Positions 3,814 to 42,855 are shown, counted from the stretch's first letter. The stretch: 50,527 nucleotides of DNA from Bacillota bacterium (GCA_051744825.1 JBNJDL010000002.1:1-50527); one strand, 5' to 3'. The notes: generated from the sequence alone by a model not told the origin. Numbers and translations: made by a program.

Positions 3814-3814
3814 A

Positions 3815-12789: not shown

Positions 12790-13838
12790 TGAATAGTTTA
12801 AAATTTGATTTACAACTTTTTGCAGAAGAAGGAGTAGAAAGTGTAGATGCTGGTAATGCCGAAGTAGAAGCAAATACAAGTGGTGCGGAAGCATCTGAAG
12901 CAACTGAAACAGAATCAACAGTAGAATCTACTGATAATATAGATAGTGGGGAGAAGGCTGATGATTTCAATTCAGCTGGAGATATGTTTGAAAGTTTTAT
13001 TGACAATATGGATTCAGAAGATAACACAGAAGATGCAGTAGAAAATAAACCAAGCGAAGAAGTTATTGAAGGTGAAGAACCTATTGAATCCGAACAAAGC
13101 GAAATACCTGAAGTTTTTAACACGGACGATTTAGAATTGTCTGACAAATCGTCTGATAATAGGAATTTAAAAACATTTAGAACTCTATTTCAGAATGAAG
13201 AAAGCGAAGCAGGTGATAATGAAGGCGAAGAAGAACAATTAGAAGACACAGATAATGAAAATGATGAAGAAAAAAGTAAATTTGCGGACATGGATAAAGA
13301 CGAAATCATGGATAAGTTGTATGACGACCCTGAAGGATTCATCGATGAATTAGTCGAAGAAAGATTAACTACGGCTGAAATGAGAAAGAAGCAAGAACAA
13401 CAGGAAAAACAACAAAAAACTGAAACGTTAAAAAAACATTTCAATGAATTCACACAGCGTCACCCTGATTTTGAAGAATATAGTGATGTCATGAAGGAAC
13501 TTATTGACAATCCTGATTTGGATTTAAAGGGGAATCCTAACGCTTATGAAATTAGCTATCACTTAGCTAGAAGCTTAAAGAATGATGAAATACCAACTAT
13601 GCCTACTAAAGATGAAATGGTAGACCAAGTATTAAATGATGAAGAAACATTATCAAAGGTTATTGAAAATGAAGAAGTTAAAAATAAAATTGTATCAAGT
13701 TACTTAGAAAATTTAGATTCAAATGATAATATCAAAACTATAAAAAGTAAAACAAATAAAGGTAAAACTGTTTCTAATAAAAAGAAATCATTTGATAATT
13801 TCAAAGAAGCAGAAGAAGCTTTATTCAATGAGATGTAA
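12789..13838 (+). CDS. scaffolding protein (highly acidic)
   Basis: Lies between portal and capsid. Extremely D/E-rich and low-complexity, with a helical C-terminal half. Confidence 0.65.
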   Translation: MNSLKFDLQLFAEEGVESVDAGNAEVEANTSGAEASEATETESTVESTDNIDSGEKADDFNSAGDMFESFIDNMDSEDNTEDAVENKPSEEVIEGEEPIESEQSEIPEVFNTDDLELSDKSSDNRNLKTFRTLFQNEESEAGDNEGEEEQLEDTDNENDEEKSKFADMDKDEIMDKLYDDPEGFIDELVEERLTTAEMRKKQEQQEKQQKTETLKKHFNEFTQRHPDFEEYSDVMKELIDNPDLDLKGNPNAYEISYHLARSLKNDEIPTMPTKDEMVDQVLNDEETLSKVIENEEVKNKIVSSYLENLDSNDNIKTIKSKTNKGKTVSNKKKSFDNFKEAEEALFNEM

Positions 13839-21730: not shown

Positions 21731-21741
21731 AGGAGGTGACA

Positions 21742-23479: not shown

Positions 23480-24187
23480 GTGAAAAAGATAAAAGTAGTA
23501 AATGGTATAATAAGAAATAAGAAAATCAACGGGATACCAGTTAACATTGACATAGTAGAACCTTACGGCAAAAAGAATGTCAGGACGTTGATACCATTAA
23601 GAAATCAAATTGGAATTACATATCACAACACATCTAACACAAATCCATCAGCTACAGATGAAATGCATGCTATATGGTTACAAAATTTAGAGAATGCAGA
23701 TAATAAATATGTATCCGCTCATATATTTGTTGATGAAGATTCAATAACACAAGTAATACCATTGACAGAAGAAACCTATCACGCTGGAGATGGAAAAAAA
23801 GGCGTAGGGAATTCAGAAACTATATCTATAGAAATATGTGAAAACAAAAATTATAAAAAAGCAGAGAGAAATGCTCAATTATTAGGGGCATCTATGTTAT
23901 TGCAAAATCCTAATTGGGATATCTTTAAACATGAAGATTGGAGCGGTAAAAATTGCCCTAGAGTAATTTTAAATAACAATAGGTGGAATGCATTCAAGAA
24001 TGAAATTTTAGAGATATTTGAGCAATCTAAAGTGGTTAATTGGAAATTAAGGGGGTTGAAATACTTATCAGATGAATTTAATGTAGATTATGATTATTGG
24101 GTTGAAAGAATTAATGAACCAGCACCTGTATGGGCTATGATGGAAATTATAGCTAGAGTAACAAGGAAATTAATTAAAGGTGATTAG
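23480..24187 (+). CDS. N-acetylmuramoyl-L-alanine amidase (Amidase_2/PGRP-type endolysin)
   Basis: ITYHNTSN, AHIFVDEDSITQVIP, TYHAGDG, SIEICEN and HEDWSGKNCP match the zinc-amidase signature. GTG start. Confidence 0.85.
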   Translation: MKKIKVVNGIIRNKKINGIPVNIDIVEPYGKKNVRTLIPLRNQIGITYHNTSNTNPSATDEMHAIWLQNLENADNKYVSAHIFVDEDSITQVIPLTEETYHAGDGKKGVGNSETISIEICENKNYKKAERNAQLLGASMLLQNPNWDIFKHEDWSGKNCPRVILNNNRWNAFKNEILEIFEQSKVVNWKLRGLKYLSDEFNVDYDYWVERINEPAPVWAMMEIIARVTRKLIKGD

Positions 24188-26772: not shown

Positions 26773-29700
26773 ATGAAATTTGAAAACTACACTTACAACA
26801 AAACAAAAGATGAAGATGATAAAAACAAAAAATTTAAATATGATAAGAGTAGAGCAAGTAAGTTGTATAACGATATTAGTGTTGACAATGTAAAATTTGA
26901 TAATTTAACATTCAAAGACCAAAAAACAGTTTTGCAATTTTCTGTAGACCAAGGTTTAGATGACTACAATGATTATAAAACTGATGTAATAAAAGATTAT
27001 GGCATTAAAAAGCCGTCTACTAGAACAAACACTACATTTACAGATGAAGGCAAAGTAGATTATGAAACTGAAAGCGTTGAATCAGAAGATAATTCAGGAG
27101 CTTTTTTTGGTAATGAAGTAAGCTATAATAATACACCTGAAGAAAATGCTAGATTGCAATCAGGTGATAAATTAAGAGATGATTTATTTAATTCAGCTAT
27201 TGAAGGTAAAACTAATCAGGGGAAGTTCTATGATTCTAATGATTCCCCTGCATCAAAGCTGAATTTAGATTCTTTATCATCAAAAGAATTATTTAATAAA
27301 GGTATTTATAGCGAAGGTGTAAAGAAAGAACAAGAAGAAATAAAGAATAAAAATCAATCTTTAGTTAAGACTCCTTATGGTGAAAAAACTTATGAAGAAT
27401 TCATGAAAGAAGTTGAAGAAAAGAATGATGTAGCAACTAAATTTAATCAAAAAAGATTAATGAAAAAACCAGTTGAATTAAAAAAATCACAGGTTAATTC
27501 TGAAAATTCAAATGAACCAGCACCTGAACCATTTGATTATATGACAAAAAAAGATTATGCTAACACTTATAAAGGTTTAGACATTGCGTTTAAACCTATT
27601 ATCCCTGCACAAATCCAAGTTTTGGATTCAAGCGGTAAATTGGATAAAGAAGCAACAAAAAAAGCTAGAGAGAGATTTGAAAATGGTGATTCAGTTAAGA
27701 AAACAGTCGGTGGAAGACATATGCATTATAATAAAGATGGTTCTATAGATACAGAAAGAATGAAAGAATCATATAAGACTGAAATGAATTACAAGAAAAA
27801 TGAGTCGCCAGTTGATGTAGATGAGTTATTAGATAAAAGCAGAGATGATTTCATAAATGAAGATAATTCTTTTAGTTTTGGTGCGTTAAAAGAAGATGTA
27901 ATAAGAAAAAGGATTTATAATAAAAGAAGTGAAATTTTAGGTCAAATGGCAGTTAAAGGTTCTAATGATGAATTAAAAAAAGATTTAGCTAAAATTGATT
28001 TGTTTATTGAAAACAATCCTGAAATGCAAGATTCTGAAAAAACTAAAGAATTTAGAAAAGAACATAAAATTTTAGGGTTCTTAGACAAAGGCATATCAGG
28101 AGTAACTGAACAAATTACACTTTGGACTAATAATTTAGGTGAAAAAGCAATGTTTACTGGATTAGGAGCTTTAACAGGAAATCCTCAAGCTGGTTATATT
28201 GCAGGTTCATCAAAAGATATGTTTATGATTGAAACAGGTAATGCATATGAAGAAGCTAGAAAAGCTGGAGTACCACATGAAATAGCTAGGAAAGAAGCTA
28301 TGAAGGCAGGGGTTATTAATGCTGGTATAGAATCAGGTCAAATGGCTTTATTTTTAGCAACGTCAGGATTGTCTAAAATAGGTTTATCAGGAGCTTCTAA
28401 AGTAGGAGCGGGTACTGTAGATAAATTATTTGGTAAATTTGCTTCTAAAGTAGCAAGTAAAACTGGTAGTCAATTAGCTGGGAAAGTAACTGAAATTGGT
28501 ACTAGATGGGGTGCTGGTGCTGTAGGTGAAATGACACAAGAGGGTTTACAAGCGGTAATGAGTAAGAAATATGTTAATGATTCAGTTAATTTAGCAGTAG
28601 AACGTGGATTTTTATCTAAAAATGAATTAAGAGAATATGATTTTGATGATTATTCAAAAGTATTTTCAGATGAATTTAAAGCTGTTGCACCTACTATGAT
28701 AATGTTAGGTGGTATTGGTGTAGGCACAGGTCAAGTTGTAGAAGCTACTAAAAACCATTTTGAAAAGCAAGATAAAAGAGCAAGACAGTTGTATGTTGCA
28801 AAATCAATGGACGAATTAAAATTTCAATCAAAGAAAATTGCAGAAAATCCTGAACATTTTGTAACTGGTGACAAGAAACAAAAAATAATGAATGATGTTA
28901 ATAATTATATTGAGTTTGCTAAAAAATATAAAGAAGATTTTTCAGAAGTCGCTGAATCCGACTTAGGTTTTGATGCAGATTTTGATGAAGTTTTAGATTT
29001 GTTAAACAACTATAAAAAGTATTTAAATGACTTAGAGCAAAATACAAAAGATACTTTAACTAATTCTATTGATTTTGAATTAGAAGAAGGAACTATAGAA
29101 AAAGCAAAAGAAGAATATTCAAAACTTGAAAAGGTATATAAAAATATTGGAATGTCAGAAGAAGATTTAATTGAAGTTAGAAATAAAATAGAAAATAAAG
29201 AAATTGAAAATGAAAAGTTTGTCAATAATATGGATAGTAAAAATTTAGGGAAAATAAAAACTCAAAGAAATAAAAACAATTTAAATATTGATGAACTTGA
29301 AAAAGAAATAATTTCTATTGATGAAAAAATAGAAAATACTGAATCAAAAAAACAAATTGAAGAATTAGAAGAACAAAAATCTTTAAAAGTATCAGAAATG
29401 GAAAATCTGATTAATGACAATGCTATAATTACACAAGAAATAGAAAACAGAATAGAAAGTAATGAAACAGGTAATACTGAAGAACAAGAAAGTTATCAAT
29501 CTCTATATGAAAAAACTAATGAAAATATTGAAAATAAAAATATTAGAATTGAACAAAACGAAATTGAACAAAACGAAATTGAACAAAATAAAATTGAACC
29601 GTTATCAGCCGAAGAATTAAAAAATAAAACAATACCATCTGATAGAGATTTTGAAAGTTTAGGCAGTAGAAAAATAAAATCTATGCAAAATGAATTTGAA

Positions 29701-32700
29701 GAATTAAAACCTTTCATACAAGAGCAAGCTAGAATTACTCAAGGTGAGTTTCAAGCTGGAGTTAAAGGCAAAAGATATCCTATATTAATGGAAGATAGTA
29801 CTAATAAGGCTGAAATAATAGGTTATGATGGTAATCCTAGAATAGCGTCAAAAACTGTAGATAGAATATTAAACAACACTAATGCAACTTACGCAAAAAT
29901 AAATGATGCTTTTAATAATATAATTGAAGGCAATGATAGAGCTAATTTAGCAACTGCTAAAAGAATAGAAGTTATACTAAATGATATATTAACAGAAGGA
30001 TATGAAACTTTTGAGGGTATTGAAATACCGCCTAACGAAGAATATATTCAAACTAAAAGAAGCTTAGGTTTGTCAGAAAATGATTTTGAAATTGGTGAAA
30101 CAGAAGTAGAATCACAAAATGTTGACCAATCTCAAACTAAATTAGAATCAAGTGAGGTTACTAATGAAAATAATCAAACTGAAAATGTGCAAACTGATGG
30201 AAAACAATCGGAGTTTGAACAAGAAAGCGAAGTTAGTCAACCTGAAAGTGTTCAAATGGAAGAAGTTGAAAAAGCAGTCGAATCTAAATCTCAAGCTAAA
30301 CCTAAGCGAGATGAACAAAAACGAGCAGACATAGGCAAAAGATTTTATCAAAAAATGAATACACCTGTAAATTTAGGCAATAAAATTTCTGAAATAAGAA
30401 ATAGACTTATGGAAAAAGGGGTAAGCGAACAAGAAATTGATTTTATATTAGATAATTATTTTGAAGTTATGCAACAATTACAAGATGCAGGAATGGAAGT
30501 TAATTTTGATTTAGAAATAGTAGAATCTATAAGTGATTTAATAGACCAAGACATTTTAAAAGAACATGGTTTAGAAGAAGCAAACAATATTATGATTGAC
30601 GGAGCTACATTAGTAGATTCTGATATTCATAAAAATTCAATAAAAACATCAATGGAAATTGTTAGTTTGCCTAAAAAACCTATAACTGAAACATTTATCC
30701 ATGAGCTATCAGAGATGTATGCTGAAATTTGGCGACAAAATGCATCTGAAAGTTTTGAATCAATTTCTCAAGAATTGATTGATAATGATTTGGCTACTGA
30801 AGATAACGTTCAAGAGTTTATAGCAGATTTTTTAACTGATAATGCACTTGAAAAGAAAATGGATTTAAATGATGAAAATTCAGCTATCGATTCTGTAGTA
30901 GGCGAATATGTTGCTAAGTTTAAAAATTGGGCTAGTAATATAATAAAAAGATTATCTAATTTAAGAAACACAAAAGAGCGAGTACCTGACTTGTTAAATA
31001 AGCAAGCAGAAATGTTTTCTAATGGGAATTGGAAAGAAGCAATAGAAATGTACCAAAGTGCTGAAAAAACTTATGAGAATTCATATTCTGACGTATTACA
31101 GCAAGAAATGGTTAATGATTTGGTTAGTGGTTCTTTAAATCAAACTAAAATGGTTAACAAGTATGGTATAGGTGAAAATCAAGCACAAATATTACTAGAA
31201 AAAATGAATCAATTAGGAAATGAAGAAGAAATAGTTAGTATATTTGATAAAGAAAAACCTAATTTAAGTGATGTAAAAGAAAAAACTTTAGAACCTAATC
31301 AGATAACAAATGAACAAGCTAAAGTTTTAAAAAGAAGTTTAAAAAGAGCTGAAGAAAAAGGTTATTCATTTAATGGTATTGCTAAAAACAATAAAGGTAC
31401 AGTTTATTATAGTAAAACTTTAAATGATAGTGCAAATAGTCTTGCTAATGGTAAAACTTTGGTAACAATGATTGGGAAATCAGGCAAAGTAGCTTCTGAT
31501 GTTAGTAAAGAAGTATTTGACAGTTTGGAAAAATTAGATACAGTTATGGACGAAGATGCTAACACTATATATGATTCTTCTGATTTTGAAGATTCAAATA
31601 ATAAATCGATTGAACAATCTGATGAAGCTGTATCTGATTATGAGATTGAAGAATATAAAGGAAAACCAGTACCAAAGGCTATAGAAAATATAAATTATAA
31701 ATTCAAGAAAGCCGAAGATTATACTAAAAGTGAATATCAAGAAATGTTTAATGTACCTGATAAAAAAATTGATAAAATGTTTGAAATTTTTCAGATTGTT
31801 GAACAGGAAATGTATTCTTTAACTGAAGATGTAAGAAGTCAAGAAAAATATCAAAAAGAATTATCTGATGGTACTAAAGAGAACATGAAAGATTATGAAC
31901 TAGAAGAAAAATCGTCTGTAGATATTCCTTATGCTGACAACTTACTTGAAGAAAAAAATATTGAATTGAATGATGCTAAAAATGAAATAAGAGCAACTAG
32001 ATTTAATGAAGTTGCAAAAGATATTATTGATACAATGGTGGAATATGAACAAAAAGAACCAATTGAGGTAGCAGATGAAGTAGTAGAAGAATCAAATAAA
32101 GTAGAAATCAACAGAAAAGAAAAATATAAACTAGACGGAAAAATAAAAAAACAATATAGTACTGAAAAAATTGATGGTAAGAGAGTTAGAAGTTATATAA
32201 TTAATGCTACTACTCAAGAAGATATTGATAGAATAGCAGATTATTTTGGTAATGAGAAAAAATATGAAGTTTTAACAGAAGGTATGGATACAGAAGGCGA
32301 TTATGAAAATAGTTTTGTAGAAGTATTCATTTATGATGATGAAAATACTGTAACTCAAGCTAGAGATTTATTCAATAGAGATTACAGAAAGTTAAAACAA
32401 AATGATTTTGAAGAAGTAGAAAATGCTAAAACTGAAAGTACTAATGATAAAAATGATAAACTAGAAACTTATGAAAATCATATTATCCCTGAACCTATTT
32501 TAGGTGCTGGAGTATTCGATAATAAAGATTATCATGAATATACAATTGATGAATATGCTGAAAAATTCAATATTCCTGAAGATAAAAAGGAAGAAGTATA
32601 TAAAATCTATAAAAAAACTGAAAGAAAAATAAATAGCGATTTATATGAAAAAGTTTATAATAAAGATAAATATTATAAAAAATCAAATGGTAAAAGAGTA

Positions 32701-35700
32701 TCACTCACAGATAAAGAATTAAGAGAAATGAAACCTATAGATGTAAAACATGCTACTAGTTTATTTAATGAACGAGAGATAGAAATTAATAATGTTAAGG
32801 AAAATGCTAGAAAGAACGAATGGAATAAAATTGCTAAAGAAGTTATAGATACTACTATAGATACTGAAAAAAATAGAGCAGAACTAGAAAAAGCTTTTGA
32901 TTATGATATTAAAGATGCAGATTTATCAGATGAAGCTTTTAAAAAAAGATATGGTATAACTAAAAAAGAAGCTTTAGATGGTGAATATTACAATGGTGAT
33001 GGTTCTTTAGAAGAAAAATATTTAACAGAAGGCGTTAATAGTCACATTAAAAATCCTTTAAAATTCAAAAAGAATATGGAAGCTGTATATAATAAAATGA
33101 CAGCCAAAAAGAAACTTGCTGATAATCATTTAGTTGTAAAAGCTAAGATAAGTCATTTAGATGAATCTTTAATAGTGGGAACAATAAGGAAAAAAAGCGG
33201 TGTTATTTTAACAACAGAAGAAGAATTTGATAGAAGCACAGAAACTAATATTCAAAATAGAAGTATAAAAGACGCAGTAAACCATAATGTTATGAGAATG
33301 AAGTCTAACTTTAAAGACAAATATATGAAAGACTTGAAAGCGTTAGATTCTTCAATAGAATTTAATACTGGTGGTGGCTTAACGGAACACAATGTAGCAA
33401 ATTTAAACTTTGAATATAATAATGACATGAGCGAAGGTACAATAACTTTAAATTTAGATGAAAAACTTAAAGAAAGCATTTCTGAAAAAGAACAACAAGA
33501 AATGATTGAAGAAGAAATATCTAAATTAGAGAAGCAATTAAATAAAGAAAATTTGGAATATGAATTACAGCCAAGTGAAGAAAGTTTTAAAAGAACTATC
33601 AAATTTGAAATAAAAGAAGATGTTAATAAATACAATGAAGAAATGAAGAAAAAAATTGATGATTTCTTTAGTGGGAAAATGACAGAAGATACTAGATTTT
33701 CAGTATCTGAAAGCTTTGAAAAAAGAAAATTTGATATTGATGAGCAAGGCAATTTATTATTTGTTCATGGAATATATAAAGATAAATTAAAAAAAGCTTT
33801 AGATTTAGGTGCTTTACCAATGCCTTCTTTGGCTATGATTGATGATAAAACTTCATATACTGGATTTGGTGAAATTTCACTTATAGGAAGTAAAGAGTTT
33901 TTCAATCCTAACAGAGCTTCAAATAATTTATTTGATTCTGATGTTTATTCACCAAGATTCCCAAGAACAAAAAGATTTTTATATCAAGAAAAAGCAAGAG
34001 AATGGTTAAATGATTTTATTTCTGAATATAAAAAGTTTGATGTTGAAGAAATTGAAGATTCAAGAGCAAGAAATTATTCAGACCCTGAAAGTTTAGCACA
34101 TGCTTTATATCGTTCACCAGCTATAAAAATAAAATATGCTAGTGAAGTATTAGGCGAAGAATATGATTATTTAACTGACAAAAAAGTTATAGAAACAACT
34201 AAGTATATTTCTAAATTGTTTAATAAGAATTTGAAAGATGATTTTATTCAATTTTTAAAAAATGAAACTATAATTGATGAAAAATATATTGATTTAATAA
34301 AAGAAAAAGGAATTAGAAAAGCGACTAAAGAACTTTCTTCTGAAATTACTGCTGATGGAGCAATTAATTCTAAAAAGAAAATGTTTGAATACTTTAAAGA
34401 AAATGTTGATTCTGAAATAACCTTTGAAGATTTTAAAGAAGAAGTTGGTTTTTATAAATCTGAATCAAAAGATGCTTTCAGTTTGATTTTTAAAGATAAT
34501 TTGTCTGAAATTAATGAAGAATTTTCAAATCATTATATTGATAAACAAATTTTTCCGTCAGGAGAATATTCTTTAACTAAAAAGTATAAAAAATGGTTAT
34601 CGAATAAAATTAAATCGGCAGGATTGTTTAGCGAACCTTATTTCACTGAATGGAATCCTGACCAAATGGAAGAAATAAAATATAAAGTAACACCTGAAAA
34701 CGCACTTAAACTTATGAAAAAGAAAAGTTTACAAGCTGGAGAAGGTAATTTAGTTAGTGGATTTAATGAGTTTAAAAGTGCTTTTGCAAAAAAATTAACA
34801 TCTTTCAAAGAAGCTAGAAAAAGAGCTGAAACAAACTTAGCTGATTTTGAAGAAAAAAAGTATAAAGAATATACAGATTCATTAAATAGCAAAATATTAG
34901 AATTTGTTAAAGATTATGATTTATCTACTGGAGGTTCTTCATTTGTAGATGCAGATGCTTTTATAGATACAGTTATAGAGTATAAAGAAAGCACTTTGCA
35001 CGAAATGCGTAAATATAGTGAAAAGTTAGATGCTAATTTTGAAGAAGCTAGTAAAAGATTTAATGAACTAATAACTTTGGCACAGACATTACCAGTTAAT
35101 TATTTTGAATTAAAACCTAATAGAATTGTAGGCTTTGATGAATTTAATTATGCTGTAGTACCTAATAAATTAGATGCTAATTTAAAAGAAAAATTATCTG
35201 ATTTAGGATATAATTTAATTCAATATGATGGTACTCCAAAAGGTTATAGAAAAGCATTAGCTGAAACAAAAGGTGACCCAAAAGTTAGATTTTCAGTAGA
35301 AAACATCGATGAGTCAGAAACGTTGACAGATGAGTCTTTAAAGGTAATAGAAGAAATTAAAGGTTCAGAAAAAGTTAACGACTATAAAAGAAGTGCTAAA
35401 AAAATAAAACAAAATGCAGATATAATCAGAAAAAACTTCGACCCAGTAGATAGTAGTGAAAGCTTTAGAATTGAAGAACTATTAAATAAAATAGATTACC
35501 ATATTAATTTCACTTTAAATGAAACAAACAATTATATAGATTTTATGGAAGATGGATTTGATGCTTTAGAAAAACATTTTAAAGAATTAAAAGAATATGG
35601 TGTGAATTTAGTAGATGATGGTTGGGTAAGAGTAGGACACCCAGTAAACAAGGCATTAAGACGTGAATATGAAACATTGAAAAGATTAACTAAAAAGCAA

Positions 35701-38700
35701 AAGAATAATGAAGGATATTTTCAAGATAGAATTAATGAAATATATCAACTTTTTAGTAAACACGGGCTTGAAAACCTTGATGAAATTGGTAATTTTATAG
35801 AAAGTTTACCAATGACAAAAAGAACTATATTATATGACAATGTTAGATTCTCAACGAATAAAGTAAGTGAAAATAGTATTGGTTATAATAAAGAATTGCC
35901 TAAATCTTACAATAGAGTGGCTGATAATTTTGATAAAAATGAAGTTTTAAATGTACATTATAACAATTTAAAAAATACTAATTTGCTTTTAGAATTGAAT
36001 AGAACTAAAGCAAGAGATGAATACGGCAATCCATTGTTATTGTTTCACGGAAGCACACATAAAATTAATTTTCCTTCACCTAATAAATCGACACCGCGTG
36101 GTTTTTTAGGCAAAAGTTTTTATACTAGCACAAAAGTTGATGATGTAATGACAAATTATTTATTAGATGGTTCTGATTTAAAACAAAGAAAAGGAAGATT
36201 AGAAGAAAAATTATATGAAATGCAAGATTATGAATTACTTGAAAAAGCAGATGCACATAACATTGATTATGACGAAATTTCACCTGATATACCAAACATA
36301 GTAGAAAAAATAGTAGATAAAGAATTGATTGGCGAAGGGGAATATGTTTATCCAGTTTATTTAGATATCAAAAATCCTTTCGTGATTGATGAAAACAGTA
36401 ATGATAGAACTATAAAAATTAGATATGATGAATATACTATGGAAATGTATGAAATAATACAAGAAAAAGAAAAAAGAATTAAAAAATTAGGTAGAATGGT
36501 AGCTGGAATGAATCCTAGTGAGAGGAATGAGTCATTTTTAGAAAATGCTAAAAAAGAAATAATAGAATTAGAAGAAGAACTTGAAATGGATATTGAAGAT
36601 TTTCAAGATGAAGCTATGTATTCGGAACTAGAAGGAAACCTTGTTGATATAGTTGAAGGTATTGCTTCATTCTTAAAATATGATTCTGATATAGAAGATT
36701 TCATTAATCAATCAGAAAATATAGAAGCAGAAATATATGAAGAATTAGATGCATATTTAAATGATTCAAATCCTTATTTAGAATTCACTCCATACGAAGT
36801 GTTTGAAGCAATAAAGAATGTATTAATAGATAAAGAGTTTATGTTTAATGATTTTCATTTAGATGATAATTTTTACAATCCAATAGGCGAAATTATAAGA
36901 CGTGGATTAAAAAGTGCTGGTTTTGATGGTGTAATATTAAAGAATGCTGAAGATAGATTTAATGGTTATGGTTTATCAGTACCTTATGGAACAGACCATT
37001 ATATGGCATTTAACTCTGACCAAATTTATTTCTTTGATGATTATGATTTAGAACAAAAAGAAAGAAATCCATATAAAAATGTTGATTGGGAAGATTATCA
37101 AATTGAAAATTCAGAAACTTGGGAAGAAAAAACTAAAAATAATAAAACAGTTAAACGTTATATGCAAGAACATGATGTTGTTGAAATGATATCTGTTGAT
37201 TGGTTAGATAAATTTAAAGAATTCAGAAGAAATCAAAAAGGTCTTTCAACTGCTGAAAATGCTGAACAACTTGTAAAATCTATTTCTGAAGAAGGTATTA
37301 AAGAACCTATAATAATAGATTATAATGCTAAATCTCAAAAAGCACATATTGCAGAAGGTAACAATCGGTTGATGATAGCACAAAAGATTGGTGCTGAAAA
37401 AGTGCCAGTTAGAGTCATGAATTCAAAATATGAATCTAATGTAATCAATTACAAGGTGCAAAATCCTAAAATAGATTCAAATACTAATCAAGCAGATTTT
37501 AAATTAACTGATATAGTGCCAAAATGGGAATTGGAAAACAATATTGAGCAAAACTACAATCTAAGGTTCTCGATGGAAAATATAAAAGATTTTAGAACTG
37601 AATTAACTGGTTCATTTAAAGGTCAAAATAATTTTTCTAAAATAGCTGTAGTAGATGATATTAAAATGGGAGAAATAGAATATTCTACATTAGAGAATGA
37701 TATAGATAATAAAATTTATATTAAAATGATTGAAGTACCAAAAGAGTTTAGAAGAAGGAAAATTGCACATCAAATGCTTTATGATTTGCAAGAAAACAAT
37801 CCTGATAAAACAATTGACTTTGGTTATTTTACAAGCGATGGTTCTAAAATGATAAATGCTATCGCAGATAAGGTGGAGAGTAAATACTATGATGATTTTG
37901 AAAGATTAGAGGAAATTAATAAAAAATTAGAAAGGTTAGAAAATGCTGATTATGATTCTCTATCTGAAGAAGAAAAAGAGTCGTGGAATCCTTTAAATGA
38001 TGAGCAAATTGATTTAGAAAATAAATTAAGAAACAAAAACAAGTATAATTACAAAATTAAACCTGTTGAAAATAATAATTTGGTTCAGCCAACATCAAAA
38101 AAATGGGATAAAGGAGCGACATACGAAGAAGTCAAAAAACAATTCCCTGATGTTAATGGTGAAGTGGAAGAAGGTAAAGAGGCTCATTCTACACAAATCA
38201 AGACAACTTTAGGAACTTATCAAAAAGTTATTGATGAATTTGTTGAAAAAAATAACAAAGTTTTAGATTTTAGTGCTGGTTTAGGTTATGGCACAAGATA
38301 TGGTAAATTTAAAAACTTTGGTATTGAATTTGACATTTCTTCAAAACAAGTAACTTTAGATAATGTACAAAGTAAATATTCTAAAATAATAACATCACAT
38401 GGCTATAAGAAGAAGAAAGATTCTTATGTTAAAGATATAAGTAATTTAGAAGAATCGGAATACATGTCTGATATTGATTCAATGATAAAAAAAATAAAAG
38501 GTTTATTCCCTGAAGATGCTGAAATGTTATTCGAAGCTAGCGAACCATTTGCAGAAGAATATTACAATCCAGAGTATACTGATTCAAAAGAAATAGCTTC
38601 AAATAAATATGATTTAGTTATTAATAATGCCGTATTAAATGTAGTGACTCAAGATGTAAGAGATGATATAGTTGCTGAAATAGGTAGAGTTTTAAAACCT

Positions 38701-41700
38701 GACGGCAAAGCAATAATAATGGCTCGTGGTAGAAGTGGCATTGTAAATTCTAAGACAGGCAAGAAAATTGAAGGTGGAAATAAATATGCTAGATATATGC
38801 CAAATAAAAAATCATATCAAAAAGGTTTTTCAAAAGGCGAATTATTTGAATATGTAAAAGATGTATTGAACCAAAAATCAGAAGGCGTTGATTTTGAAGT
38901 AGAAAAAATGCGTAAATCTAATTCAGGTACAGCATCAACTAAAAATGGCGTTATAATAACTAAGAAATCTAAGATGTTTGATGTTAGATTTTCAGCAGAA
39001 GAAAATAATATTCCTACAAGACCGCCAAGATTGCCTGATGACGCATTTTTTGAAATGGAAGAAGATTTATATGATGCTAAGATGAAACAATGGGAAAAGT
39101 ACCAAAATGACTTCAGAAAGCATACTAAAAAAATACTTGACCAAGATAATGTGTTTAGTATAAGAAAAGGTGATGATTTTGCGATTATACACCCAAGTAC
39201 CAAAGGTAGTAATTATCAAATTAGTTATTTTGATAAAGACGGCGTTTGGGGCGATACACAACATGAAACATTTGAACAAGTTATAAATGATTTATTTGAG
39301 CATAACTTTGATGATATAGAAAATTTAGAAAGAATGTCAGATGTTAGATTTTCAACTAATCAAGAAAAAGTAGGAAAAAAAGTAGGGTATACATCTTATG
39401 TTCATAAATCAGCAATAGATGCATTGAATAATAATTTAAAAAAATTACATGATAATGCAGTACAACATATACCAAAAGAATTTGGTGATTATGAAATAGT
39501 TAAAATTAATAAAAAGACAGGTTTTGTTAGTTTTATAAAATCACCTAATTGGGATACGGCACATGAACCTACAGTAGGGGATTCTATTAAAATTAAAAAT
39601 GATGGCGAATATAGTATAAGACATGCATCTAAAAAGAATCCTAAAATTTATCATCATAAACATTTATTTGTTAAAGAAAATTATGAAGGTTTTGATATTC
39701 AAGAGTCACGATTAAGAAGTCAAATTTGGAATAATTTAGATGGTATAAATAAACGAAAAATAGGTTCGAAAAAATATTGGGAAGAAACTGTATTACCTAA
39801 GATTAATAAGGAAATACAAAATCTTAAAGAAAATGATGAATATAATAAAAGAACAGATTTAACAGAAAATGTTGAAAAATGGTTTGAAAATCATGTGAGA
39901 TTTTCTACTGAAAATGTTGAAAAATCAAAACTTGATGAAAGAATAAGAGAATTAAAAGTTAAAATTGAGCAACTGGAAAAAGATGTAGAGAAAGACCCTA
40001 ATTTAAGATATGAGTTAAGAAATGCAAGAATTGAATATTTTGGTTTAGGCGTTGAAAAAATAAGTAGAAATACTGAATATGCTTTTGAAAAAGTAGTGAA
40101 TTCGTGGTTTCAATCAAAAGATTTAAAACAATTTAGAAGTATGGTTAAAATCAAAAAACTTCAAAATAGAATCAAAAGTATAACTGGAGAAAAAAGTAAG
40201 TTAGGCAATATAATTTATGGTAAAGAAGCTAAAAAACTAGATAGTGCAATACAAATTTATATTGATTTGTTAGGCAATACTGATGAAATGATTGAAAAAT
40301 ATTATGATAAATTAACTGATGAGCAAAAAGAAATTGTTGATTTAAGTCAAGATTTACCTGACGAAGCAAAGCAAATAGCTGATGAAGTACTAGCAATGTC
40401 AGAGGAAATAGGACAACGTGGTTTAAGTGCAGGAGTGCTTAAAAATCTTAGAGAAAATCATTTATCTAGATTTTGGTTAGATGATAAAGAAAGAGATAAA
40501 AGTAATGTATCTCATGCTAAATTCAGTACAAAAACTAGTCTTGCTAAAATGAGAACTTTAGAATCTATATTAGAAGGCTGGGCTAATAATAAAGAATTAG
40601 CTATGAAAGGTGCAACAACTGCGTTAGATGCACAACTTGATTCTTTAGTTAAAGCTATAGAAGATGATAGATTAATAAATACAATGTTAAACACTAAAGG
40701 TTTTGAAGATGAAAAATTGCTTATAAATTATAAAGCTGATGGGTATGTTCCAATAAATCACCCAATGTTTAAAAAATGGTTTCCAGTTAATGGTAATTAT
40801 GAGAAAAAAGATTTTAAAATTGATGATGCTAGAGAAGGTCAATTAGTAGAAGTAGATGGGAGAAAAGGCAGATTAGGTAAATTTGATAAGAAGCAAATAA
40901 AAGGACAATTTAATATTGATGGTGAAGAATCTAAGAAAATAATACCTATTATATTTGAAGAAAAAGGCGGAACAATTGTTGAAAAACATAATGTAAGCGA
41001 TATAGAAAAAATATCAGCTTCAGGTAAAGATTTCTTCATAGATGATAGCGACACAATTTGGGCTAACAAAACTTTATATATGCCTGAAAAACAAGCCAAA
41101 AGAATGAACAAAATTTTAGGAAAATCTACATTATACGATGTTGAATTCTTAGGCACAAAACCTTTTGATTGGTTTACAACAGTTAATGGCATGTTAAAGT
41201 CTTGGATACTTCAAACTTCATTTTTTCATCATTTAGCATTCATGAGAAGTTATTATTTAGGTACTAACAATAAAAAAACATCTGAATTGAACTTCTATAA
41301 AGCATATAAAAACGGAATGGATAAAATTGAGAATTTAAATGAAGATATTGAATTGTTAGTTAAAAATGGAATGACTTTAGGTAGATTACAAGATTGGGAA
41401 GAAAGAGTATTTAATCAAGAACAAGGTCGCATAGGCAAGTTATTAGATAAAACTAAAGCGACTAAAGTAATTAAGAATAAAATGTTGGAATATAGAGAAA
41501 GACAAGCTAATTTCTTATTTAAACAGTTTGGTGCTGGTCTTAAAGCACAAGCTGGTTTAATAGAATTAAGACATATGCGAAATAAATACAAAAAAGAGTT
41601 AGCTAATGGAACGGTCACTGAAGATAAAATTGCTGAAACAGTAGGTAATTTATTAAACAATGACTTTGGTGGATTGCATTTGCAAAGATTAGAGCGTAAT

Positions 41701-42855
41701 CAAACATTTCAACATGTAATGAGATTATTCTTATTAGCTCCCGATTGGACTGAATCTAATGTAAGAACAATGGTAGAAATGTTTAGTAAAGATAAAATGA
41801 AAGCGGATATTTCAAGAAGATTTTGGCGTAATGCATTTGCAAAAGGCGTTGGATTTACAGGGCTTATGAATTTGATGATGGCTCAAATAGGTAAGGAAGA
41901 CGATGAAGAAACTTTAGAAAAGTTTTTCAAAATGTATAGAAATGCTTGGGAAGCAAGCAATTTGCGTTGGACTGCTGTAAATATAACACCTTTATATGAA
42001 CTTGTAGCTAATAATCCTACTAACGAACAATATTTCTTTAGCTTAATAGGTCACTTTAAAGATGTGCTTAAATTTACTGCACACCCAGTAAGAAGTTTGA
42101 ATCATAAAGGTAGTACAATATTTAGAATTGGGCAAGAAATATTGACAGGTGAAGATTGGCGTGGTTGGGGATTCTCGACTACAGGTGATTATTTAGGTCT
42201 TAGCAAAAATTCAGATTTAGGTAAAGCGTTAGGTGCAACAACTTATGATGGTAAGCATAAAGGTGAAACTACACATTATGGTGGTGGTGGCTCAATAGGT
42301 TATGAAAATTTATTACCATTTATTGTTCACCAAATTATAAGTAACCAACCTATACAACTTCAAAATTTAATTGAATATCAATCAGGTCAATTAACTGGTA
42401 TAGAAGCAGTTGCTAATAGTGCTGGTCTAGATGTCAGAAGGACTTATGTACCGCCTGATAAAGCTAGATTTGATGAAAAATGGGATAAATTATATCAACA
42501 ATATAAAACAAATAGAGATACCGATGTAAAACCTAAAGGATACTCTGAAGCTTTTTATGATAGAATTTCTAGAATGAGAAGTCAAATTAGAGAAAACGAC
42601 AAAATGATAGAGCAATATACTGAACCTAAAGAAATTGATGCATTGAAACAAAAGATAAGAGCTATAGAAAATTCCAACAGAAGTGATGAATATAAAGATA
42701 AAATGATTGAATTTAATGAGAGAAAAATAGAAAGAATTGAAAAGAACCATGAGGAAAAAGAAGAAATCTATAAAAAAAGAATAGAAAAACTTCAAGAAAA
42801 AAATCAAAAACTATATGAAAAAGCTAATGAACTGTTGGAAAATAAAGGTTATTAA
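26773..42855 (+). CDS. giant polyvalent (multi-effector) protein, 5,360 aa
   Basis: Single uninterrupted ORF with a GGAAAGGGTG RBS, followed by a strong terminator. Contains several recognisable enzymatic modules, listed as sub-features below. Confidence 0.9.
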   Translation: MKFENYTYNKTKDEDDKNKKFKYDKSRASKLYNDISVDNVKFDNLTFKDQKTVLQFSVDQGLDDYNDYKTDVIKDYGIKKPSTRTNTTFTDEGKVDYETESVESEDNSGAFFGNEVSYNNTPEENARLQSGDKLRDDLFNSAIEGKTNQGKFYDSNDSPASKLNLDSLSSKELFNKGIYSEGVKKEQEEIKNKNQSLVKTPYGEKTYEEFMKEVEEKNDVATKFNQKRLMKKPVELKKSQVNSENSNEPAPEPFDYMTKKDYANTYKGLDIAFKPIIPAQIQVLDSSGKLDKEATKKARERFENGDSVKKTVGGRHMHYNKDGSIDTERMKESYKTEMNYKKNESPVDVDELLDKSRDDFINEDNSFSFGALKEDVIRKRIYNKRSEILGQMAVKGSNDELKKDLAKIDLFIENNPEMQDSEKTKEFRKEHKILGFLDKGISGVTEQITLWTNNLGEKAMFTGLGALTGNPQAGYIAGSSKDMFMIETGNAYEEARKAGVPHEIARKEAMKAGVINAGIESGQMALFLATSGLSKIGLSGASKVGAGTVDKLFGKFASKVASKTGSQLAGKVTEIGTRWGAGAVGEMTQEGLQAVMSKKYVNDSVNLAVERGFLSKNELREYDFDDYSKVFSDEFKAVAPTMIMLGGIGVGTGQVVEATKNHFEKQDKRARQLYVAKSMDELKFQSKKIAENPEHFVTGDKKQKIMNDVNNYIEFAKKYKEDFSEVAESDLGFDADFDEVLDLLNNYKKYLNDLEQNTKDTLTNSIDFELEEGTIEKAKEEYSKLEKVYKNIGMSEEDLIEVRNKIENKEIENEKFVNNMDSKNLGKIKTQRNKNNLNIDELEKEIISIDEKIENTESKKQIEELEEQKSLKVSEMENLINDNAIITQEIENRIESNETGNTEEQESYQSLYEKTNENIENKNIRIEQNEIEQNEIEQNKIEPLSAEELKNKTIPSDRDFESLGSRKIKSMQNEFEELKPFIQEQARITQGEFQAGVKGKRYPILMEDSTNKAEIIGYDGNPRIASKTVDRILNNTNATYAKINDAFNNIIEGNDRANLATAKRIEVILNDILTEGYETFEGIEIPPNEEYIQTKRSLGLSENDFEIGETEVESQNVDQSQTKLESSEVTNENNQTENVQTDGKQSEFEQESEVSQPESVQMEEVEKAVESKSQAKPKRDEQKRADIGKRFYQKMNTPVNLGNKISEIRNRLMEKGVSEQEIDFILDNYFEVMQQLQDAGMEVNFDLEIVESISDLIDQDILKEHGLEEANNIMIDGATLVDSDIHKNSIKTSMEIVSLPKKPITETFIHELSEMYAEIWRQNASESFESISQELIDNDLATEDNVQEFIADFLTDNALEKKMDLNDENSAIDSVVGEYVAKFKNWASNIIKRLSNLRNTKERVPDLLNKQAEMFSNGNWKEAIEMYQSAEKTYENSYSDVLQQEMVNDLVSGSLNQTKMVNKYGIGENQAQILLEKMNQLGNEEEIVSIFDKEKPNLSDVKEKTLEPNQITNEQAKVLKRSLKRAEEKGYSFNGIAKNNKGTVYYSKTLNDSANSLANGKTLVTMIGKSGKVASDVSKEVFDSLEKLDTVMDEDANTIYDSSDFEDSNNKSIEQSDEAVSDYEIEEYKGKPVPKAIENINYKFKKAEDYTKSEYQEMFNVPDKKIDKMFEIFQIVEQEMYSLTEDVRSQEKYQKELSDGTKENMKDYELEEKSSVDIPYADNLLEEKNIELNDAKNEIRATRFNEVAKDIIDTMVEYEQKEPIEVADEVVEESNKVEINRKEKYKLDGKIKKQYSTEKIDGKRVRSYIINATTQEDIDRIADYFGNEKKYEVLTEGMDTEGDYENSFVEVFIYDDENTVTQARDLFNRDYRKLKQNDFEEVENAKTESTNDKNDKLETYENHIIPEPILGAGVFDNKDYHEYTIDEYAEKFNIPEDKKEEVYKIYKKTERKINSDLYEKVYNKDKYYKKSNGKRVSLTDKELREMKPIDVKHATSLFNEREIEINNVKENARKNEWNKIAKEVIDTTIDTEKNRAELEKAFDYDIKDADLSDEAFKKRYGITKKEALDGEYYNGDGSLEEKYLTEGVNSHIKNPLKFKKNMEAVYNKMTAKKKLADNHLVVKAKISHLDESLIVGTIRKKSGVILTTEEEFDRSTETNIQNRSIKDAVNHNVMRMKSNFKDKYMKDLKALDSSIEFNTGGGLTEHNVANLNFEYNNDMSEGTITLNLDEKLKESISEKEQQEMIEEEISKLEKQLNKENLEYELQPSEESFKRTIKFEIKEDVNKYNEEMKKKIDDFFSGKMTEDTRFSVSESFEKRKFDIDEQGNLLFVHGIYKDKLKKALDLGALPMPSLAMIDDKTSYTGFGEISLIGSKEFFNPNRASNNLFDSDVYSPRFPRTKRFLYQEKAREWLNDFISEYKKFDVEEIEDSRARNYSDPESLAHALYRSPAIKIKYASEVLGEEYDYLTDKKVIETTKYISKLFNKNLKDDFIQFLKNETIIDEKYIDLIKEKGIRKATKELSSEITADGAINSKKKMFEYFKENVDSEITFEDFKEEVGFYKSESKDAFSLIFKDNLSEINEEFSNHYIDKQIFPSGEYSLTKKYKKWLSNKIKSAGLFSEPYFTEWNPDQMEEIKYKVTPENALKLMKKKSLQAGEGNLVSGFNEFKSAFAKKLTSFKEARKRAETNLADFEEKKYKEYTDSLNSKILEFVKDYDLSTGGSSFVDADAFIDTVIEYKESTLHEMRKYSEKLDANFEEASKRFNELITLAQTLPVNYFELKPNRIVGFDEFNYAVVPNKLDANLKEKLSDLGYNLIQYDGTPKGYRKALAETKGDPKVRFSVENIDESETLTDESLKVIEEIKGSEKVNDYKRSAKKIKQNADIIRKNFDPVDSSESFRIEELLNKIDYHINFTLNETNNYIDFMEDGFDALEKHFKELKEYGVNLVDDGWVRVGHPVNKALRREYETLKRLTKKQKNNEGYFQDRINEIYQLFSKHGLENLDEIGNFIESLPMTKRTILYDNVRFSTNKVSENSIGYNKELPKSYNRVADNFDKNEVLNVHYNNLKNTNLLLELNRTKARDEYGNPLLLFHGSTHKINFPSPNKSTPRGFLGKSFYTSTKVDDVMTNYLLDGSDLKQRKGRLEEKLYEMQDYELLEKADAHNIDYDEISPDIPNIVEKIVDKELIGEGEYVYPVYLDIKNPFVIDENSNDRTIKIRYDEYTMEMYEIIQEKEKRIKKLGRMVAGMNPSERNESFLENAKKEIIELEEELEMDIEDFQDEAMYSELEGNLVDIVEGIASFLKYDSDIEDFINQSENIEAEIYEELDAYLNDSNPYLEFTPYEVFEAIKNVLIDKEFMFNDFHLDDNFYNPIGEIIRRGLKSAGFDGVILKNAEDRFNGYGLSVPYGTDHYMAFNSDQIYFFDDYDLEQKERNPYKNVDWEDYQIENSETWEEKTKNNKTVKRYMQEHDVVEMISVDWLDKFKEFRRNQKGLSTAENAEQLVKSISEEGIKEPIIIDYNAKSQKAHIAEGNNRLMIAQKIGAEKVPVRVMNSKYESNVINYKVQNPKIDSNTNQADFKLTDIVPKWELENNIEQNYNLRFSMENIKDFRTELTGSFKGQNNFSKIAVVDDIKMGEIEYSTLENDIDNKIYIKMIEVPKEFRRRKIAHQMLYDLQENNPDKTIDFGYFTSDGSKMINAIADKVESKYYDDFERLEEINKKLERLENADYDSLSEEEKESWNPLNDEQIDLENKLRNKNKYNYKIKPVENNNLVQPTSKKWDKGATYEEVKKQFPDVNGEVEEGKEAHSTQIKTTLGTYQKVIDEFVEKNNKVLDFSAGLGYGTRYGKFKNFGIEFDISSKQVTLDNVQSKYSKIITSHGYKKKKDSYVKDISNLEESEYMSDIDSMIKKIKGLFPEDAEMLFEASEPFAEEYYNPEYTDSKEIASNKYDLVINNAVLNVVTQDVRDDIVAEIGRVLKPDGKAIIMARGRSGIVNSKTGKKIEGGNKYARYMPNKKSYQKGFSKGELFEYVKDVLNQKSEGVDFEVEKMRKSNSGTASTKNGVIITKKSKMFDVRFSAEENNIPTRPPRLPDDAFFEMEEDLYDAKMKQWEKYQNDFRKHTKKILDQDNVFSIRKGDDFAIIHPSTKGSNYQISYFDKDGVWGDTQHETFEQVINDLFEHNFDDIENLERMSDVRFSTNQEKVGKKVGYTSYVHKSAIDALNNNLKKLHDNAVQHIPKEFGDYEIVKINKKTGFVSFIKSPNWDTAHEPTVGDSIKIKNDGEYSIRHASKKNPKIYHHKHLFVKENYEGFDIQESRLRSQIWNNLDGINKRKIGSKKYWEETVLPKINKEIQNLKENDEYNKRTDLTENVEKWFENHVRFSTENVEKSKLDERIRELKVKIEQLEKDVEKDPNLRYELRNARIEYFGLGVEKISRNTEYAFEKVVNSWFQSKDLKQFRSMVKIKKLQNRIKSITGEKSKLGNIIYGKEAKKLDSAIQIYIDLLGNTDEMIEKYYDKLTDEQKEIVDLSQDLPDEAKQIADEVLAMSEEIGQRGLSAGVLKNLRENHLSRFWLDDKERDKSNVSHAKFSTKTSLAKMRTLESILEGWANNKELAMKGATTALDAQLDSLVKAIEDDRLINTMLNTKGFEDEKLLINYKADGYVPINHPMFKKWFPVNGNYEKKDFKIDDAREGQLVEVDGRKGRLGKFDKKQIKGQFNIDGEESKKIIPIIFEEKGGTIVEKHNVSDIEKISASGKDFFIDDSDTIWANKTLYMPEKQAKRMNKILGKSTLYDVEFLGTKPFDWFTTVNGMLKSWILQTSFFHHLAFMRSYYLGTNNKKTSELNFYKAYKNGMDKIENLNEDIELLVKNGMTLGRLQDWEERVFNQEQGRIGKLLDKTKATKVIKNKMLEYRERQANFLFKQFGAGLKAQAGLIELRHMRNKYKKELANGTVTEDKIAETVGNLLNNDFGGLHLQRLERNQTFQHVMRLFLLAPDWTESNVRTMVEMFSKDKMKADISRRFWRNAFAKGVGFTGLMNLMMAQIGKEDDEETLEKFFKMYRNAWEASNLRWTAVNITPLYELVANNPTNEQYFFSLIGHFKDVLKFTAHPVRSLNHKGSTIFRIGQEILTGEDWRGWGFSTTGDYLGLSKNSDLGKALGATTYDGKHKGETTHYGGGGSIGYENLLPFIVHQIISNQPIQLQNLIEYQSGQLTGIEAVANSAGLDVRRTYVPPDKARFDEKWDKLYQQYKTNRDTDVKPKGYSEAFYDRISRMRSQIRENDKMIEQYTEPKEIDALKQKIRAIENSNRSDEYKDKMIEFNERKIERIEKNHEEKEEIYKKRIEKLQEKNQKLYEKANELLENKGY
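28090..28750 (+). other. Gly/Ala-rich hydrophobic region of the giant protein (possible membrane-interacting segment)
   Basis: MFTGLGALTGNPQAGYIAGSS..., AGVINAGIESGQMALFLATSGLSKIGLSGASKVGAG..., WGAGAVGEM..., APTMIMLGGIGVGTG. Confidence 0.4.
29548..29598 (+). repeat. 15-nt in-frame tandem repeat (IEQNE x3)
   Basis: attgaacaaaacgaa x2, then attgaacaaaataaa, then attgaa. Confidence 0.9.
35990..37030 (+). other. tentative ADP-ribosyltransferase-like module (H-Y type) with a large insert
   Basis: NPLLLFHGSTH (His 3092) and GKSFYTSTKVDD (Tyr 3117). The distal AGFDGVILKNA...GTDHYMAFNSDQIYF resembles the terminal strand of ART modules from polyvalent proteins, but I see no clear catalytic Glu. Confidence 0.35.
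37180..37425 (+). other. ParB/sulfiredoxin-like (ParB N-terminal nuclease-type) module
   Basis: ISVDWLDKF...LVKSISEEGIKEPIIIDYNAKSQKAHIAEGNNRLMIAQKIGAEKVPVRV fits the pattern l..SI...G...Pi.v......y.i..G.hR..A....G....pv.v. Confidence 0.55.
37600..37870 (+). other. possible GNAT-fold acetyltransferase-like module
   Basis: IYIKMIEVPKEFRRRKIAHQMLYDL resembles GNAT motif A (V.pe.RrkGia..Ll), with K where the Gly is usually found. Confidence 0.3.
38170..38740 (+). other. class I SAM-dependent methyltransferase module
   Basis: Motif I KVLDFSAGLGYGT, then YDLVINNAVLNVV and IGRVLKPDGKAIIMARG, with a long insert after motif I. Confidence 0.65.
41160..42360 (+). other. C-terminal hydrophobic/aromatic module of the giant protein
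   Basis: WFTTVNGMLKSWILQTSFFHHLAFMRSYYLG, LFLLAPDWTESNV, GVGFTGLMNLMMAQIG, WRGWGFSTTGDYLG and GGGGSIGYENLLPFIVHQIISNQP. Confidence 0.4.

Follow-up and report, generated by a model that had tools for sequence, protein, structure and literature searches.

A short phenylalanine-centred motif recurs at the module junctions of a giant phage polyvalent protein and its relatives

Of the weapons that phages and conjugative elements inject together with their DNA, polyvalent proteins are some of the largest and most widespread. Autoproteolytic release of their domains by zincin peptidases has been predicted, with no cleavage site named (Iyer et al. 2017; PMC5512222). Here we describe a short motif, with the core Arg-Phe-Ser (RFS), that recurs seven times in a giant protein of this kind, encoded in a stretch of 50,527 nucleotides (nt) from a Bacillota bacterium (GCA_051744825.1 JBNJDL010000002.1:1-50527), which is called the window throughout and is a phage contig. 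Like the proteins described in that work (PMC5512222), the giant protein joins PBECR5, ART-PolyVal (ADP-ribosyltransferase), ParB_N and methyltransferase domains in one phage polypeptide, together with a module matching phrog_16075, so that several unrelated effector or enzymatic domains stand in a single chain. It is phage-encoded: the genes that precede it in the same orientation include those for terminase, portal, major head protein, tail fibre and amidase. Family-specific domains (PBECR, ART-PolyVal, LPD) are common to it and other members. The giant protein is a polyvalent protein, atypical in that it lacks the zincin-like metallopeptidase, a trait that is very common in the family and does not strictly define it.

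Other described systems resemble this arrangement in part. MARTX toxins carry in cis a cysteine protease domain, activated by inositol hexakisphosphate (InsP6), that cuts after Leu between effectors in unstructured linkers. The giant protein is like them in holding many effectors per polypeptide with short sites in linkers, and differs from them in its Phe-centred motif and in having 0 Cys and no such domain by Pfam. The comparison with MARTX-type cleavage sites made in an earlier note on this DNA, drawn from the sequence alone, fails on mechanism, since a protein without Cys has no cysteine protease domain. The VENN motif of CdiA and the DPxGL motif of Rhs proteins mark a single border between N-terminal part and C-terminal toxin, within pre-toxin domains. 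As in these, a very short motif stands here exactly where conserved sequence yields to unrelated, exchangeable modules; in contrast to a single border ahead of a C-terminal toxin with a cognate immunity gene, it recurs seven times in the giant protein and up to seven or eight times per protein, beside any kind of module and in a linker. In the HFS autoproteolytic sites of Nup98 and PIDD/ZU5, which lie within a folded domain, the Phe is followed by an invariant Ser that acts as the nucleophile, whereas the junction Ser is often Gln or Ala in relatives and the motif lies in modelled coil. Prohead proteases process packaged internal proteins at L/I-x-E in T4 and at S/A/G-x-E in phiKZ-like phages. 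SPN3US offers an example (PMC10052503). The likeness here is to packaged, ejected proteins trimmed at short motifs, and four of the seven giant-protein sites read S-x-E, but Glu stands two residues after Ser in only 6 of 72 family junctions, the protein family is also carried on conjugative elements (PMC5512222) and no prohead protease was found in the window.

The junction motif and the borders of modules

The giant gene, its domains and its motif sites are located as follows (aa, amino acids; scores are those of the family matrix described below).

26773..42855, + strand: giant polyvalent (multi-effector) protein gene, an uninterrupted open reading frame (ORF) of 5,360 aa, with 0 Cys and no HExxH
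28816..28827, + strand: LKFQ (F684), a candidate for a further junction within the first 2,300 aa; score 8.1, the protein's sixth best
33691..33702, + strand: junction motif 1, TRFS (R2308, nt 33694), at the start of the PBECR5 module; score 15.5, the protein's best
33691..34380, + strand: PBECR5 domain (predicted RNase of polyvalent proteins), aa 2307-2536; Pfam E=3e-18
35032..35322, + strand: small C-terminal alpha/beta sub-domain of module 1 with the motif at its end, from alignments A1 and A2 and corresponding to A2
35284..35295, + strand: junction motif 2, VRFS (R2839, nt 35287), at the end of the PBECR5-containing module
35842..35853, + strand: junction motif 3, VRFS (R3025, nt 35845), upstream of the ART-PolyVal/ParB_N block; score 9.5
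36343..36468, + strand: ART-PolyVal match, aa 3191-3232; Pfam E=3.6e-7
37183..37425, + strand: ParB_N domain, aa 3471-3551; Pfam and PHROGs
37561..37572, + strand: junction motif 4, LRFS (R3598, nt 37564), upstream of the GNAT-like/methyltransferase block, which is the block that follows it; score 9.4
38041..38967, + strand: S-adenosylmethionine (SAM)-methyltransferase module, aa ~3757-4065; Pfam Methyltransf_11 (match proper aa 3940-3982), and BLAST matches to relatives P0002, P0005, P0006, P0014, P0027 and P0051-53
38983..38994, + strand: junction motif 5, VRFS (R4072, nt 38986), just beyond the end of the methyltransferase domain
39343..39354, + strand: junction motif 6, VRFS (R4192, nt 39346), upstream of the KVP40.0371-like module
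39337-39888: module of aa 4189-4372, homologous (33-35% identity) to the stand-alone hypothetical protein KVP40.0371 of KVP40-like Vibrio myoviruses; phrog_16075 match at aa 4199-4339
39895..39906, + strand: junction motif 7, VRFS (R4376, nt 39898), upstream of a C-terminal block of ~985 aa
40516..40527, + strand: looser copy AKFS (K4583; AKFST at aa 4582-4586), with a weak score of 3.6 and of uncertain status

RFS occurs exactly seven times in the giant protein, always preceded by T, V or L, and the sites read [DNHKE]-[VLT]-R-F-S-[VTAM] (KMFDVRFSAEEN is an example of a junction peptide). The earlier note had placed seven [V/L/T]RFS motifs and one AKFST, and every residue and nucleotide position that it gave proved exact; the sizes of the blocks between sites follow from these positions (531, 186, 573, 474, 120 and 184 aa, with a terminal block of 984 aa). 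Composition, which that note had named as the explanation to be tested by shuffling, does not account for the count: RFS is expected 0.57 times, with a maximum of 5 in 2,000 shuffles, and [VLT]RFS 0.09 times, with a maximum of 2. RFS is also the most enriched tripeptide of the protein (Poisson P ~2e-6, uncorrected for the 8,000 tripeptides). Furthermore, a matrix built only from the junctions of other organisms ranks five of the seven sites as the protein's top five and all seven within its top 12. The candidate LKFQ at F684 has the F-Q form, the second commonest flavour in relatives, and homology block ends give it no support. The codons of the sites vary synonymously (AGA/AGG, TTT/TTC, TCA/TCG/TCT, GTT/GTG/CTA), and selection thus acts on the protein. 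As had been reported, the 15-nt string GATGTTAGATTTTCA is present at both motif 5 and motif 6 (38980 and 39340); codon bias is strong (AGA 84%, TTT 82%, GAT 88%) and two copies of DVRFS are codon-identical about 4% of the time, so that the identical 15-mer is weak evidence alone, largely accounted for by this bias.

The same motif marks the ends of homologous segments in other proteins. A homologue search with aa 2201-5360 as the query gave 49 further proteins, 1,750-4,555 aa long. Nearly all have PF18814 and/or PF18760, and many also have PF18798 or PF18819. BLAST blocks shared with them begin at aa 2300-2308 and stop at aa 2840-2850 or aa 4072-4079, and the relatives' sequence at block ends is YKFSLS, LKFSMS, YRFSLA, IRFSIR, IRYSIS, QYSLK, MFSVRE or VYFQTA (IRYSIS, QYSLK or MFSVRE at aa 4072-4079); no BLAST alignment with these 49 relatives crosses motif 3 (R3025). 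Only three proteins were returned by a second search with aa 3585-4400. When aa 2285-2875 were aligned with 20 diverse segments of 18-24% identity, the Phe of RFS-2839 (F2840) was one of 17 columns invariant in the 21 sequences. In addition, the last 94 residues of module 1 matched 78 loci in GTDB genomes, mostly of Clostridia and Negativicutes; a single Fusobacterium and small numbers of Bacteroidota, Proteobacteria and other metagenome-assembled genomes make up the rest. In a set of 1.84 billion representatives, these residues matched 2,942 protein clusters (1,881 at E<=1e-10). In the 72 distinct junction windows from the 78 loci and in the top 150 of the 2,942 clusters the module end is [RKQY]-F-[SQA], nearly every one reading [V/A/I]-[R/K/Y/H]-F-[S/Q/A], and the sequence beyond it is unrelated, being another PBECR5, the start of an ART-PolyVal (DSxGxxL), a coiled coil or a zincin peptidase. 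Gln replaces Ser after the Phe in 15 of the 72 junctions and Ala does so in 6. The 71 long ORFs from these loci contain 62 further matrix hits, against 29.4 ± 4.9 in shuffles, and of the 61 that were scored, 44 have a homology-block end no more than 15 aa away, where random positions would give 26.8.

Domain edges tell the same story. The Pfam PBECR5 model begins at the motif, its position 2 being aa 2307 of the giant protein, and the motif is silently contained in the first positions of that model. In relative P0004 the last residue of ART-PolyVal is aa 1181, and RFS (aa 1187) comes right after PBECR5 model position 2 (aa 1186); in P0019 three matrix sites lie 7-9 aa beyond an ART-PolyVal or PBECR5 border. 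In the methyltransferase homologues P0051 and P0052 the chain stops a few residues short of the equivalent of RFS-4072, and the tblastn alignment of block 4192-4376 to Vibrio phage proteins begins ~8 aa past motif 6. Another relative, P0059 (2,450 aa), is built like the giant protein, with seven (N)PD[IL]RFSRP sites, one weak matrix hit, 0 Cys and no HExxH. In the giant protein the PBECR5, ART-PolyVal, ParB_N, methyltransferase and phrog_16075 matches each lie inside one block, in agreement with the earlier claim that enzymatic signatures never cross a motif. The proposal that the motif marks module boundaries is thus strongly supported by the BLAST block ends, the Pfam PBECR5 start, the methyltransferase homologue ends and the invariant Phe, and it generalises well beyond the giant protein, the suggested search in homologues having found the motif at module ends in the 78 GTDB loci, with 2,942 clusters matched. 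On comparison of these sequences, RFS is the local form of a family junction motif, [ED]-[NDG]-[VAI]-[RK]-F-[SQA]-[LIVM], in which the Phe is near-invariant. All these data describe a real, general and apparently undescribed junction motif: it is mentioned neither in the two principal papers on polyvalent proteins, one of them PMC5512222 (which names no cleavage or junction motif and whose text lacks the terms 'RFS', 'linker' and 'boundaries'), nor in our literature searches on polyvalent proteins, and within the literature searched the earlier remark that no equivalent is described stands.

By eye, a longer conserved tail precedes the junction in P0004 (aa 1160-1190), P0019, P0058 and P0059, and reads approximately Q-I-K-[SN]-[AV]-x-[DG]-N-x-[GK]-x-[FP]-x(3-5)-[ND]-P-D-I-R-F-S. 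In P0004 this tail sits after the ART-PolyVal domain, and the Pfam model of that domain therefore stops a few residues before the motif.

The structural position of the motif was analyzed in two AlphaFold models built from shallow alignments (21 and 9 sequences). In the model of aa 2285-2875 (21 sequences; mean predicted local distance difference test score, pLDDT, 68.7), RFS-2308 lies in coil of pLDDT<50 ahead of the first confident strand and RFS-2839 in coil right after the last confident helix, the pLDDT going from 82 to 57 to 44; the C-terminal sub-domain of module 1 is modelled with confident strands and helices. The second model is of a homologue with NLFFQ as the motif ahead of a zincin peptidase, and there too it is coil of pLDDT<50 between both domains. 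These three modelled instances fall between compact domains and not inside them, as the earlier note would have it for a boundary, and they are indicative of a linear motif in an exposed flexible linker and not a core strand. No sequence match in the PDB was found for the giant protein or for an ART-PolyVal plus tail segment, and Foldseek with the module model returned nothing below E=2.

Cleavage and other readings of the motif

The reading that best explains these observations is that the motif is a processing site releasing effector modules, to which we assign a probability of about 0.45, somewhat short of even. The giant precursor would be recognised and cut at the motif into separate modules, the RNase-like PBECR5, the ADP-ribosyltransferase, the ParB-like nuclease, the methyltransferase and others of unknown function, either within the phage head or once the protein has been ejected into the host. 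For most relatives the candidate protease would be the zincin-like metallopeptidase of the same polypeptide, with the scissile bond placed at [R/K]'F (the apostrophe marking the bond cut) and the Phe in the S1' pocket. A large hydrophobic residue fits the S1' pocket of zincin-type peptidases. In this regard, HExxH is present in 133 of the 143 relatives of at least 2,000 aa (93%), mostly in zincin-peptidase-like contexts, and the giant protein differs from them in lacking this peptidase. In all 15 proteins of the STxxHExGH type the sites have the [FYLH]-[FY]-Q flavour, with [RK]FS nearly absent, whereas the 169 proteins with other HExxH types show the reverse preference. More tentatively, the junction motif may represent a processing code of polyvalent proteins, centred on Phe and read by a zincin in cis or by a protease in trans. 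This code would come in two or more co-evolving flavours, [RK]-F-S for Firmicute elements and [FY]-[FY]-Q where the peptidase is of the STxxHExGH type. A processing site is the best fit to a motif that is modelled as exposed, recurs wherever modules meet, does not depend on the folds to either side and has a single flavour in any one protein.

In the STxxHExGH zincin proteins P0043, P0017, P0050 and P0048 and loci L057, L060, L070 and L073 the junction reads ENLFFQD, DNLFFQG, RIFFQR or NVYFQN. The ENLFFQD-type junctions are close to the tobacco etch virus (TEV) protease site ENLYFQ(G/S), a striking likeness that is probably a coincidence.

Several points weigh against processing, and the cleavage site put forward in the earlier note, though the best reading, is unproven. 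Cleavage has been observed for no family member, and lineage confounds the link of flavour with peptidase type. The protein whose sites are most numerous and cleanest carries no protease that can be recognised, HExxH and HxxEH being absent from it and from every window ORF in six frames, and P0059 is a second many-site protein without HExxH. In some relatives the next domain begins 2 aa past the motif (NVYFQTAYHGS), which leaves little room for a protease. Furthermore, models from shallow alignments leave room for a weak packing role of the Phe, and docking of the motif in cis into the adjacent peptidase was not seen in the homologue model, as judged by pLDDT and secondary structure only. Because HExxH is absent from the giant protein and the window, and Cys from the protein, a protease would have to act on it in trans, and could be the product of a phage gene outside the contig, the S8-like protein of the window (21736-22725) or a host enzyme. 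No hidden peptidase was found in the window by HExxH or HxxEH in six frames, by profile matches or as a Prp-like ORF among those scanned. The S8-like protein has Ser (GTSGSAP) and His (GYHALSVG) motifs and, by eye, Glu at the usual Asp position (VLILES); this Glu and its location among tail genes make it a weak candidate.

Much of the same evidence would suit a handling signal that involves no proteolysis, which we regard as rather unlikely though the strongest of the alternatives. The motif would here form a short strand, amphipathic through its hydrophobic residues at -2, 0 and +2, to which a common partner binds between modules (for example a chaperone, an unfoldase, a conjugative coupling protein or the machinery for packaging or ejection), so as to keep the modules separately foldable or to guide the threading of a very long polypeptide. 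The alternation of hydrophobic and polar residues in [VAI]-x-F-x-[LIVM] is as expected for binding by strand addition, the modelled linker would expose it, and a signal of this kind needs no protease, which suits both the giant protein and P0059. The giant protein has 0 Cys in 5,360 aa where ~32 are expected (0.60% Cys in the other 27 window genes), and in the 52 relatives that the two homologue searches gave the mean is 0.09%, many having 0 in 2,000-3,500 aa; this absence fits a protein kept able to unfold for packaging and ejection, and Cys-free chains would suit unfolding and translocation in the giant protein and most relatives. Additionally, a large polyvalent protein is reported to be abundant in virions of phage phi24B, and its ejection has been proposed (bioRxiv 10.64898/2026.04.10.717836). 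However, no partner has been identified, no obvious reader is common to phage heads and conjugation machines, and the co-variation of flavour with the type of peptidase in cis is left unexplained.

A boundary element inherited with the modules, either a conserved end-cap or a VENN-like demarcation for exchange with no reader of its own, appears distinctly improbable. It would agree with conservation that runs up to the motif and gives way to unrelated sequence right after it, and with the place of the motif at the margins of domain models, as the first residues of PBECR5 and a little past the last residue of ART-PolyVal; the Ser codons, TCN in all seven sites and never AGY (P ~0.05), are a faint hint of common descent. 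Against this, the same 4-6 residues stand beside modules of unrelated folds in dissimilar surroundings, the Phe is invariant though modelled as disordered, and 9-12 nt with synonymous variation are too short for homologous recombination. The flavour is also coherent within each protein, all RFS or all FFQ/YFQ, which argues for a common reader.

Very little credence can be given to the idea that the sites are fossil or active N-termini, from former separate genes starting M-x(3-4)-R-F-S or from internal starts. A Met does stand 4-5 residues upstream in three of the seven sites (KMTEDTRFS, KMFDVRFS and RMSDVRFS; chance ~0.003), and block 6 is homologous to a stand-alone phage protein with an alignment that runs from ~8 aa past the motif, but the internal ATGs have no convincing Shine-Dalgarno sequence where real window genes have strong ones, a Met at that position is not seen in relatives, and the motif starts none of the 50 family proteins of the first search. 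As for the remaining suggestions of the earlier note, a conserved first beta-strand or domain core is not supported, the three instances being low-confidence coil in both models. A DNA-level signal was rejected on synonymous codon variation, and recombination at the DNA level finds no support as the primary cause, given the same variation and a protein-level conservation across very different genomes.

The phage, its host and the Prp protease

The giant gene is placed directly 3' of phage structural and lysis genes, in a contig of 26-35% GC that has no terminal repeat and in which no tRNA genes were found, and which is apparently incomplete. Genes for tail-region proteins lie downstream of that for the major head protein, and a tail fibre gene is also found upstream of the giant gene on the same strand. 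The main features of this region are listed below.

7805-9694, rightward block: terminase
10717-12789, rightward block: portal
12789-13838, rightward block: scaffold-position protein, between the portal and capsid genes
12807..12824, + strand: canonical Prp-type site DLQLF'A, residues 7-12 of the scaffold-position protein (N-terminus MNSLKFDLQLFAEE)
13862-15034, rightward block: major head protein
21736-22725, among tail and lysis genes: S8-like (Peptidase_S8, subtilase-like) protein with a C-terminal Cu_amine_oxidN1 domain
23480-24187: Amidase_2 lysin

The ribosomal-processing cysteine protease Prp of the host offers a further candidate for cutting at the motif, one that we consider most doubtful. 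Prp cleaves ribosomal protein L27 and the capsid and scaffold proteins of phage 80alpha (PMC9405229, PMC5744158), with the consensus MLxx(D/N)LQ(F/L)F'A (PMC9405229). The scaffold-position protein starts MNSLKFDLQLF'AEE, a textbook Prp site, junction site 5 (FDVRFSAEE) resembles FDLQLFAEE, and the host is probably a Firmicute; Prp sites and the junction motif are alike in being short Phe-containing signals of Firmicute phages. They differ in that known Prp sites are N-terminal, (D/N)LQ(F/L)F'A within the first 9-15 residues and cut between F and A, whereas all seven sites are internal (aa 2308-4376), lack this sequence and follow the junction form [VAI]-[RK]-F-[SQA]. Prp is also highly specific for its own L27 sequence (PMC9405229), and the FFQ/YFQ motif occurs in proteins assigned to Proteobacteria and Bacteroidota, groups without a long L27. 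The canonical pattern is found once in 512,825 aa of polyvalent proteins (201 proteins), against 2.3 expected, and this near-absence together with the specificity of Prp led us to reject it as the main reading. In two Firmicute genomes, genes adjoining polyvalent genes (L043 15384-16853 and L053 2225-3610) start with M..LDIQLFA and MRLFDIQLFA, canonical N-terminal Prp-type sites. Neighbours thus carry canonical DIQLFA and polyvalent proteins do not, and therefore these elements use the canonical signal when Prp is meant; Prp use seems to be common in polyvalent-carrying elements. The canonical site of the scaffold-position protein, as read from its sequence, suggests a Prp-bearing host (Firmicutes, Fusobacteria or relatives) and a head maturation that would depend on it.

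The host is probably Firmicute-like, because window genes have strong Shine-Dalgarno sequences, Cu_amine_oxidN1 and Amidase_2 domains are present and the GC content is 28%. No close relatives of the phage were found in INPHARED DNA, IMG/VR or JGI metagenomes, and its capsid protein is only ~25% identical to capsids of Arthrobacter and Microbacterium phages. Among plus-strand window ORFs of at least 50 aa there is one other RFS, in a tail-fibre-like protein (20032-21033), where FEGRFSS at aa 58-64 resembles the family junction consensus (EG-x-RFS), which may be chance. Immediately upstream of the giant gene, a 777-aa protein (24422-26755) has an Arg/Ser-rich N-terminal tract (SSSRNNSSSRSSRDSSRRSSRGSSRGSSS), and a weak OEP-like coiled region is its sole family match.

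Implications for polyvalent proteins

Whether and where polyvalent proteins are cut has been a prediction without a site since 2017, and the motif provides a concrete, testable candidate, with the exact residue to mutate and the exact termini to seek. It is also a sequence rule by which thousands of unannotated giant proteins can be divided into modules, an aid to the discovery of new effector domains. The seven clean sites of a protein without a protease raise the question of what reads the motif. If it is a cleavage site, pairs of protease and site flavour could be reused as tools, and a single delivered precursor would give rise to a set of free anti-defence and takeover enzymes, in thousands of phages and conjugative elements.

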